A stretch of 4,244 nucleotides of DNA from a virus (Duplodnaviria; Heunggongvirae; Uroviricota; Caudoviricetes): IMG/VR virus record IMGVR_UViG_2541047434_000018, positions 1-4,244 of that record; one strand, given 5' to 3'. Position numbers: made by a program. This document shows, piece by piece, positions 1 to 3,000 of this stretch. The first letter of the stretch is position 1. Each line of letters begins with the position of its first letter.

Positions 1-3000
1 CAATCTGCCGGTCAAACGGCTGATCGTCATAAACCCTGACGGTAATGGTCCCTGATGGCCACCGCTCCGGTGCACGGGAATCCCGGGGGAAAGCTTTGCC
101 CACTGTTTTAACGAGATCGCCTTCAATCTGGTTCGCGGACAGTTTTCCCAGAACCCGACAGTTCTCGTTAATCGTGACGTTGTTGAGCGTCCCGGAATTC
201 GCATTCACGTTACCGCTGATATCAGCATTTCTTGCGGTCAGCCTGCCCTCCGGCGTCAGGGAAAACGTCGGGGGATTGGCGGATGACGTGATACTCACCG
301 CAAACAGTCGTTTCAGGAACACATCGTTCATGAACAACTGATTCCCCTGCGCCACAAATAACGGCGTGGTGTTGCCGTCCTCCGGGTTAATCATCGCAAT
401 ACGGTCAGCCAGCAGCAGTATGTTGCTCAGGGGCTGGCCATCAGTATCCTCAATCCCCGCTCCAATACCGGCAACATAGGGTATGCCATTTTTTGTTTTC
501 TGTACCTTCAGCATGTAAAGTGCAGCAAGGTCATCATTTGTGTCCTTCTGCACGCGCTGTATCTGCTGTATGATGGCGCTCTGGTTCTCCAGCGTTTTAC
601 TGACCGTCTGTGTGATTTCATTGCGGGTTTCCGTGATGGTGGTCTTCATCTCCGCCATCTCATCCGCAAGCTGGCTGTTGTCTATCAGCTCCCATAGCCC
701 CTGAGCCAGATGCAGTTTTCCTATTTTTTCCCGGAAAAATTCCAGATACCCTTCACCATCATTGCTGGGCTGCCCGCTGACTTCCACAAACGCAGATTTC
801 CCCACCAGGTTGACGCTGCGCACGTAAAACCAGAAATCCGTCCCCGGCTTAATCCGGCTTCCCTGGACAGTCCACTGACTGCCGGTCCCCAGATAACGGG
901 CAGAGGTTTCCACCTGAGATGTATCTGCGATTTTTGTCTCCGAAAACCAGAACTCAAACTGTACCGTCGGGTCATACACCGCAAGACGCGGGACCGCTGT
1001 TATCTGAAAATAGCCCGGTGTCAGCTCAATCGTGGCGGGTACCGCAGGTGCATTAATCCTGAACGTGGTGGTGGCCGGTTCCCCCTGCTGGCCATAACTG
1101 TTAATCGCCCTGACCGTCAGGGTGTATTCCCCCGGCGGCAGACCACTGGAACGATGCTCTGTATCCGCAGTGATGGCGGTGGTCACCAGACGGCTGCCTT
1201 CTCCGCTTCCGCTGGTCAGGCGCAGACTGAAGCGCACGCCCTTCACCACCCGCGGCGTGTCCCATTTCACCTGCGCCAGATACTGGCCGTCAGCTGCGCT
1301 CACCTCCACCGTCAGGTGCTGCACTGCCGGAGGGATGACGCTGTTCAGGGTGCCTGACTGCGGCTCAAAGCGGGCACCGTTATCCACGATGGCTTCTTTT
1401 TCCGGTACGTGCTGCACCGCCGTGATGGCAAAGGTGCCGTCCGTGTTTTCCCGGACGGAGACACAGCGGAACAGGCGACGGCGCAGTGACGGCAGGGATA
1501 GTCCCCATACACCGTATGTCTCCACACCATCAGGCAGGGTGCTGACCTGTATCCGGTCCGGCGCGGGGTGTGCGGTGATGTCCACACTCACCGGCTTACC
1601 GCTGCCGTTAATCAGGTTCACCGTGGCGGCACCGGTCTCCGGCAGTGTCACAATGGCATACAGCGCCCACTTGTCCACATCCGCCGCCCCCAGGCGTTTT
1701 CCCATTCCGTAGCGCGGGTGGGTCAGCATGTCCCACAGGCACCAGGCAGGGTTGTTGCTGTATGCCGGTTTCAGGCTGCCGTCCCAGATGCCGCTGTACG
1801 TGCGTTTTTCCGGGTCATAGTTTGACGGCACCTGGATGATGCGACCGCGGATATGGTAGTTCACCGTCATCTGCTGACCGCCAAACTGCTCCGCATCCAC
1901 CTGCAGCCCCACAATCGCCGTGTTCGGGTAGCACTGTTTCACATCGATGATTTCGGTGTATGACGACCAGAGCGTCTTATTCTGCAGCTGGTCCGAGGTG
2001 CTGTCCGCCGTCTCCCGGACCATCCGGATGTTAAAAGGACGGGGAGGCAGATTATCCAGAATCACCGACGCCAGAAACTGCGAGGTGGTCTTGCCGTTAA
2101 TGGTGACATCCTTTTCCGTCACCCAGTTACCGTTACGCTGCAACTGAATCAGCAGTCGGACAGAAGAGTGATTACGGTCGCCCTTTGAGGTGGTCTCCAA
2201 CAGTGACTGCACCCCGAAGGTGACCCGCAGGCGGTCAATGTTCGCGGATGTAATGGTGCGCGTCACCGGCTTTGCCTTCGTCACTTCCACGCCCAGTGCG
2301 GTTTCAGCTCCGGAAGACTCAAAGCCTTCAGGTGGTGTCTGCTCCTGCTCCCCGGCGCGCCAGACCGCTGTCACACCATGTATCACAGGATTACCGTCCG
2401 TGTCCGTCAGCGGGGTTTTGTTCACCAGGATACTCTGCAGCCCCTTCACCGGACCTTCAATCGGCCCTTCACCAATGGCATCAATCACGCTCATCATCTG
2501 CGTGGACTTAAGATTGTCCTTTGCCTCTACCGGCGTGTGCGCCTTGCCGCCACCTTTGCCCATTGTCTCACCCTTTACTGTGATAACTGTTACGCACAAA
2601 AACAACAGGCATCCCGGAGGATGCCTGTATCATGACTGAATAAAACTTCTGAATATCTTCACATTTTCACAAACTGACTGTGGTGCTAATAATTTCTCTG
2701 CGTTAATGTTTTTTTGCCCGAGCACCAGAAACAAAAATAACTCCTTAACGTTAATCTTTGTCTGTCCCCGCAACTCTGCGGGATTTTTTTATTCTTTTTA
2801 CCTCTGCCGCCCGATAACCACGACCGCCCGCCACAAAATTCACCGCATCCAGAAAACGGGCATACACCCGGCGGCGGACCACCGTGGCACCCACCAGGCT
2901 CTGCAAATCCTCCGCCATCCCGGTGACAAGACCGAACAGATTGGACACCGTCAGCGACGGGCGGGCACTGCTGCCCTTTCCGTTCATCTCAAAGCCACTG

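Follow-up and report, generated by a model that had tools for sequence, protein, structure and literature searches.

The J gene of a lambdoid tail-tip module from Escherichia coli O157:H7 has lost 618 bases (206 codons) of its interior while keeping its reading frame. The gene lies on the minus strand of a 4,244-nucleotide stretch of DNA assigned to the Caudoviricetes (IMG/VR record IMGVR_UViG_2541047434_000018, positions 1 to 4,244), which was analysed over its whole length and is called the window here; the shortened gene and its product are referred to as J-delta. Across the window, the minus strand carries the tail-tip module. This module is very probably a decayed one, in which the deletion in J is real, has removed the core of the hub and is an ordinary lesion of prophage decay.

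J-delta begins with an ATG at 2563..2561 and stays open to the end of the window, reaching the counterpart of lambda residue 1034, which gives an open reading frame (ORF) at 2563..1 (minus strand) of 854 open codons that was identified by translation, BLASTP and Pfam as a lambda-gpJ-type tip attachment or host specificity gene. The protein is identical to the NCBI entry 'S1E_1057, partial [Escherichia coli B94]'. When compared by BLASTP with lambda J (NC_001416, 15505-18903), it aligned in two colinear blocks with E = 0 and E = 3e-173, values that place the two-block match beyond chance. The first block, J codons 1-304 (1652..2563, minus strand), comprises the HDII-insertion with FNIII-A and the HDII side of the hub; it is colinear with lambda 1-304 at 79% identity and ends ...DKWALYAI, against ...DKWALYVI in lambda. 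The second, codons 305-854 (1..1651, minus strand), corresponds to lambda 511-1034 by BLASTP and Pfam. It opens with ITLPSSGTALISLVDGSGNPVSV (lambda 511-533) and runs through the rest of the OB/beta-sandwich insertion, the last HDIV strand, a linker, FNIII-1, FNIII-2, the helical shaft, the central fibre and the start of the receptor-binding domain. Between the blocks, the 206 lambda residues G305-E510 are unmatched in J-delta, without any shift of frame. A preliminary description of this DNA had J following lambda gpJ to about residue 305 and then jumping some 200 residues in frame at positions 1600-1700. Both the size and the place of the jump were borne out, the junction lying at 1652|1651, and only the terminal motif DDQPFDRQI, which had been put near lambda 1035-1050, had to be moved, to lambda 1026-1034. 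Within the alpha-helical shaft, from FNIII-2 to the central fibre, J-delta has 28 residues more than lambda (window ~600-690, J residues ~628-655). These extra residues, together with two single-residue gaps, bring the offset from lambda down from 206 to 180 by the window end.

At the level of single bases, the junction spans 1649..1654 on the minus strand with the break at 1652|1651 (2593|2594 in the minus-strand numbering of the window), where ATT|GTG joins Ile304 to Val305 and the 618 bp equivalent to lambda G305-E510 are missing. The DNA reads ...TATGCCATTG|TGACACTG..., with the codons ...GCC ATT | GTG ACA.... The closest full-length J genes have exactly 618 additional bp (206 codons) between the two flanks, and the full-length J of the 1.2-Mb prophage in the closed genome TR01 is 100.000% identical to the window at the nucleotide level on the downstream side (1,651 bp) and 98.9% identical on the upstream side. 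The first parental breakpoint is ...GCCATTG|CGCAGTAC... (...GCCATTG|CGCAG...) and the second ...GACCGTGAGG|TGACACTG... (...CGTGAGG|TGACA...), the microhomology between them being a single G (window 1651). The same base was returned as the breakpoint in all six DNA comparisons made, with the loci L002, L003, L004, L005, L006 and L010, where L004 is the nleA prophage, L005 the 2.12-Mb prophage and L006 the 1.2-Mb prophage of TR01. With one nucleotide of microhomology, the breakpoint looks like one of illegitimate recombination and not of slippage at a repeat. We therefore propose, from the form of the junction, that the 618 bp of J were most likely lost in one illegitimate recombination between two sites that shared only this G; a single origin and this mechanism of deletion are probable.

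The same allele is present in finished genomes. Of 5,426 closed E. coli genomes, 65 match a 100-base probe spanning the junction without a break, which rules out an artefactual deletion. The gene at the junction is annotated as J or tail tip protein in every one of the 60 rows listed (60/60), and the known O157:H7 clade 8 strains EC4115 and TW14359 are among these 60 genomes. In each of the three that were examined (SS52, TR01 and E32511), the gene encodes the 951-aa protein WP_000514948.1, 'host specificity protein J', annotated as an intact coding sequence, and lies in an nleA-carrying prophage, upstream of nleA and downstream of a K pseudogene with an internal stop. WP_000514948.1 (TW14359, EC4115, SS17, SS52, TR01, E32511) shares the identical junction and the same 206-codon loss with the J of the window, and in TR01 its gene matches the window at 100% over the 264 bp before the junction and the 110 bp after it. 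Outside this 374-bp core, however, the two are only 60-90% identical in the variable region from FNIII to fibre, and the genomes encoding WP_000514948.1 have intact L and I genes and a K with an internal stop, whereas the window is without the C-terminus of L, K and I. E32511-group junction variants (99% identity) were considered as carriers of the window's 3' J type and rejected, as they encode WP_000514948.1. The J-delta allele, which public annotation already includes, is real, recent and lineage-restricted. It is native to the nleA prophage of an O157:H7 sublineage that includes known clade 8 strains, and appears to be vertically inherited. A literature search for a description of the allele found no paper.

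The deleted block takes with it a whole Pfam domain. PF13550 (Phage-tail_3) lies at lambda J 330-498, entirely within the block, and was also detected by Pfam in the excised 207-aa lambda segment; this central hub core was undetected by Pfam in the J-delta protein. Among the 120 closest database proteins, PF13550 is listed for 118, the two exceptions being the J-delta protein of AVRF01000010.1, the contig that makes up the window, and a second draft fragment. The modules on either side are retained: PF24801 (HDII-insertion with FNIII-A) at J-delta residues 86-207 (E = 3e-41), and PF24421, PF24489 and PF09327 (two FNIII/Ig domains, helical shaft and central fibre) with E-values of 1e-40 to 1e-22. 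For PF12421, the C-terminal receptor-binding Ig domain, the first 37 of 135 profile positions fall within the window, and the ORF continues past the contig end. J-delta would in this way keep the N-terminal HDII-insertion/FNIII-A part and the FNIII domains through to the receptor-binding end.

Structures of the lambda J chain are available (PDB 8IYK, 8IYL, 8K35, 8XCG, 8XCI). The centre of gpJ is HDIV, which has a tail-tube fold and together with HDI of gpL prolongs the tube beneath the gpM ring, HDIV of three J copies alternating with HDI of three gpL copies in the tip tube (PMC10721106, PMC11101478, PMC13455828). HDIII takes the place of one HDIV loop, the OB/beta-sandwich (residues 483-569) sits between beta24 (477-482) and beta25 (570-578), and HDII, HDIII and the HDII-insertion form a distal module that shuts and later opens the lumen (same three papers). 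Mapped onto this chain, the loss of 305-510 is predicted to take most of HDIV with HDIII and the first 28 residues, about a third, of the OB/beta-sandwich insertion. Because the beta-sandwich spans 483-569, the end of the deletion at residue 510 falls inside a domain; the cut ignores domain borders, and the deletion would leave orphan strands in place of a clean domain excision. In lambda, J initiates tail assembly. Since the HDIV core is lost from a protein with this role, the shortened J could probably not give rise to a tail tip.

The preliminary description had left two options for the shorter J, an in-frame deletion in a degenerating gene or a naturally shorter hub in this J lineage. Relatives of the second kind were sought among 1.84 billion cluster representatives with a query of 201 residues centred on the junction. 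This search gave 3,951 matches, and the best 150 of these were inspected. Both flanks were present in 102 of the 150, and all 102 had 191-228 residues between the flanks (median 198), so that contiguous, short-hub homologs numbered 0/102 among the both-flank representatives in the best 150 of 3,951. The junction was likewise absent from all 50,697 phage records compared, 112 of which contained the separate halves. A natural, functional architecture, in which the hub is built without the HDIV/HDIII block, would fit the frame that is open over all 854 codons and the annotation of the 951-aa allele as an intact coding sequence in closed genomes. We nonetheless consider it very unlikely, given these two null counts, full-length paralogs whose flanks reach 100% identity, a cut that falls inside the beta-sandwich insertion and off any domain border, the status of PF13550 as a conserved hub domain of the family, and the breakage of the neighbouring genes. 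By contrast, the option of an in-frame deletion in a degenerating gene is upheld by the near-identical full-length paralogs, the one-nucleotide microhomology, the loss of PF13550, the truncation of L and the deletion of K and I. The protein alignment, the mapping of the gap onto the gpJ structure and the comparison of J length among relatives, each of which the preliminary description had suggested, agree that the gap is real, that it falls on HDIV/HDIII and that relatives keep 191-228 residues there.

The intact frame had also been taken to argue for a recent event or a still-functional protein. Recency has stood, while the functional protein found no support: chance alone preserves the frame in one of three random deletions, and divergence has so far been too small to break the frame. 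J-delta stays open only because the length lost is, by coincidence, divisible by three and the loss is recent. Over the first 304 codons, the window differs from each paralog by 6 to 23 codons, mostly synonymously, and a selection test on the deleted alleles has no power.

Several points weigh against an ordinary decay lesion. The survey of relatives covers the best 150 of 3,951 matches, and a rare short-hub lineage could conceivably lie farther out. The loss of function that we infer for J-delta derives from the structure papers and from domain content. The 951-aa allele carries no disabling mutation in the closed genomes examined, and the single synonymous difference between its TR01 and E32511 copies fits recency and selection equally well. 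Finally, the O157 prophage pool complements and recombines, so a defective J need not immobilise its prophage (PMC2669165). Lesions in essential morphogenesis genes are at the same time a general pattern of O157 prophages (PMC2669165), and the window itself has two deletions in tail morphogenesis genes.

The second of these deletions lies upstream of J. Read along the minus strand, the window begins within the tape measure gene H, whose 240 C-terminal codons (4244..3522; PF09718) align to L005 and L002 and are cut at the window end; downstream of H is a complete M gene for the distal tail protein (3529..3188, 113 aa; PF05939). Next comes a truncated L, a 145-aa ORF at 3188..2751 in which L residues 1 to ~121 are followed out of frame by an I remnant and intergenic region. 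The last 28 nt of I occupy 2825..2798, with the stop codon at 2800..2798, and the native I-J intergenic region occupies 2797..2564 and aligns to L002 6083-6317, between I and J (all on the minus strand). The second deletion, 1,635 bp long and with its junction at 2826|2825, has removed the C-terminus of L with its 4Fe-4S domain, all of K and all of I but these 28 nt. A complete tail-tip operon H-M-L-K-I-J is accordingly not present, L being truncated and K and I deleted. The L-K-I junction was found in 243 of the 5,426 closed E. coli genomes; it occurs in Sakai Sp9, where ECs_1805 is 438 bp, and in the 2.12-Mb prophage of TR01, in both of which J is full length. The ~260 bp between the truncated L and J (2825..2564, 262 bases) were considered as an insertion, which was rejected, as they consist of the 28-nt remnant of I and the I-J spacer native to this phage group.

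Some further features were seen in and around this spacer. On its plus strand, antisense to the tail genes, a promoter-like site (2664-2693) precedes a terminator-like hairpin that has a T-run (2767-2782), and the two could frame a transcript of ~90 nt, with no significant Rfam match. When all of the window was scanned against Rfam with a cut-off of E <= 1, the sole match was Hrs1, which at 22 bits (E = 0.44) stays below its gathering score of 56 and was taken as chance. On the minus strand, a strong hairpin with a T-run lies at 2628-2605, ~40 nt upstream of the J start. In another O157 prophage, sodC on the opposite strand fills the I-J spacer (L006 6340-6867). Other tail-tip genes of TR01 are also decaying: J is frameshifted in one locus (L005 7313-10791) and split into two partial pseudogenes in another (L011 9655-13733), and K has an internal stop (L004 5581-6324). 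Damage to J and the genes beside it is common in this O157:H7 prophage pool.

The provenance of the window bears on which prophage it represents. The window is the entire 4,244-bp contig AVRF01000010.1 of the draft assembly of O157:H7 B94, a human isolate of clade 8.32 from Missouri, 2005, assembled in 57 contigs (PMC4928038, Table S1). For the question of mosaicism, it was compared with four tail modules of the closed TR01 genome, out of ~13 J-like places there, and its segments were 99.6-100% identical to TR01 prophage segments. The donor changes along the contig. Minus-strand positions 1-2594 are 99.6% identical in nucleotide sequence to the 2.12-Mb prophage, which the window follows to minus-strand position 2075; bases of the 1.2-Mb type (L006) appear at 2201-2236; the window equals the nleA-prophage allele (L004) only at 2330-2703, the J junction included; and from 2704 to the end it equals the J of the 1.2-Mb prophage (L006) at 100%. 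Several donor switch points, among at least three paralogous tail modules, lie within ~650 bp of the J junction.

We lean towards the view that this combination is not a real chromosome segment and is instead a collapsed or chimeric repeat contig made by the assembler from three paralogous prophages, which seems likelier than a real recombinant. The truncated L, a 2.12-Mb-like 5' part of J, the deletion junction and a 1.2-Mb-like 3' part of J would then have been stitched together, with the junction coming from the nleA prophage of B94. Such a chimera is favoured by the status of the window as a whole contig of a 57-contig draft, by the repeated change of donor relative to TR01, and by the shortness of the donor-shared stretches beside the junction, just 177 bp and 110 bp. 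Both deletion junctions together, or the J allele of the window in one piece, were found in none of the 5,426 closed genomes; a 211-bp segment of the M gene reaches at best 98.6% in closed genomes, and the M protein variant (minus-strand bases 797, 938 and 958) is recorded only on AVRF01000010.1. In the source paper very few core single-nucleotide polymorphisms (SNPs) separate B94 from closed clade 8 genomes, and therefore 11 mismatches in 2.6 kb are unexpected for a true ortholog. Against assembly error, the draft contig NEOG01000084.1 (L007 1-2943) joins the J junction to the same 3' J type. It has an nleA-type 5' half and a 1.2-Mb-type 3' half, with the switch at the first discriminating SNP, 110 bp after the junction, as in the window, and represents an assembly artefact that has recurred or else a genuine recombinant allele that closed genomes lack. 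Natural recombination among O157 prophages (PMC2669165) and the coverage of the TR01 comparison, 4 of ~13 J-like places, also count against a chimera. A chimeric contig concerns context only, that is, the home prophage in B94, and is compatible with a real deletion.

Mosaic contigs of this kind would be read differently if the hub-less J had been kept for a new role, as a real spread of the deletion among J paralogs by gene conversion. The protein might act as a dominant-negative variant, co-trimerising through its intact C-terminal fibre with full-length J of co-resident or superinfecting lambdoid phages and spoiling their tails, or it might serve as a recombination reservoir, a protected donor cassette of the receptor-binding module. 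The C-terminal FNIII, shaft and fibre modules are intact by Pfam and the receptor-binding module begins inside the window, the protein is identical in the closed genomes examined, and O157 genomes hold many J paralogs able to interact or recombine; should the mosaic contigs be genuine, the junction would also have passed between J backgrounds. No sign of selection was seen, however, the one synonymous difference carrying no statistical power, and identical copies in a clonal lineage are most simply explained by recent common descent. A retained new role is accordingly highly improbable in our judgement, and recent decay of J remains the preferred explanation.

As an ordinary lesion that is already catalogued, the J-delta deletion matters little beyond bookkeeping, although the allele could mark the O157:H7 lineage that carries it and the decay state of the nleA prophage. 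It also illustrates that an open 'host specificity protein J' ORF can be without the domain that makes the hub, and annotation pipelines or prophage-completeness tools that score such a J as intact overestimate prophage viability. Repeat contigs in draft O157 assemblies can merge paralogs, which calls for caution with recombination or gene-content calls. Beyond the preliminary description, the analysis has added the presence of the allele in 65 closed genomes, the second deletion of 1,635 bp and the mosaic of paralogs in the contig.

Among known systems, lambda gpJ (1,132 aa) is homologous to J-delta and colinear with it, the alignment running on through FNIII-1/2, shaft and fibre to the start of the receptor-binding domain; J-delta differs in being without 305-510 (PF13550; HDIV, HDIII and part of the OB insertion), in its 28 extra shaft residues and in a C-terminus that lies beyond the window. 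Sakai Sp9 (ECs_1803-ECs_1806) and the TR01 2.12-Mb prophage resemble the window in the gene order H-M-truncated L-J and in the same 1,635-bp L-K-I junction, the first 2,594 bases of the window being 98.0% identical to the former and 99.6% to the latter. Their J genes are unlike that of the window, being full length (3,477-3,479 bp; frameshifted in TR01) and of another 3' type that is ~80% identical. The baseplate hub proteins T5 pb3 and F-type pyocin BHP2, from other siphophage-type tails, share with J-delta the succession of hub domains, FNIII domains and fibre. In these two and in all described members, however, HDIV is kept as the core that continues the tube, whereas J-delta is without it.

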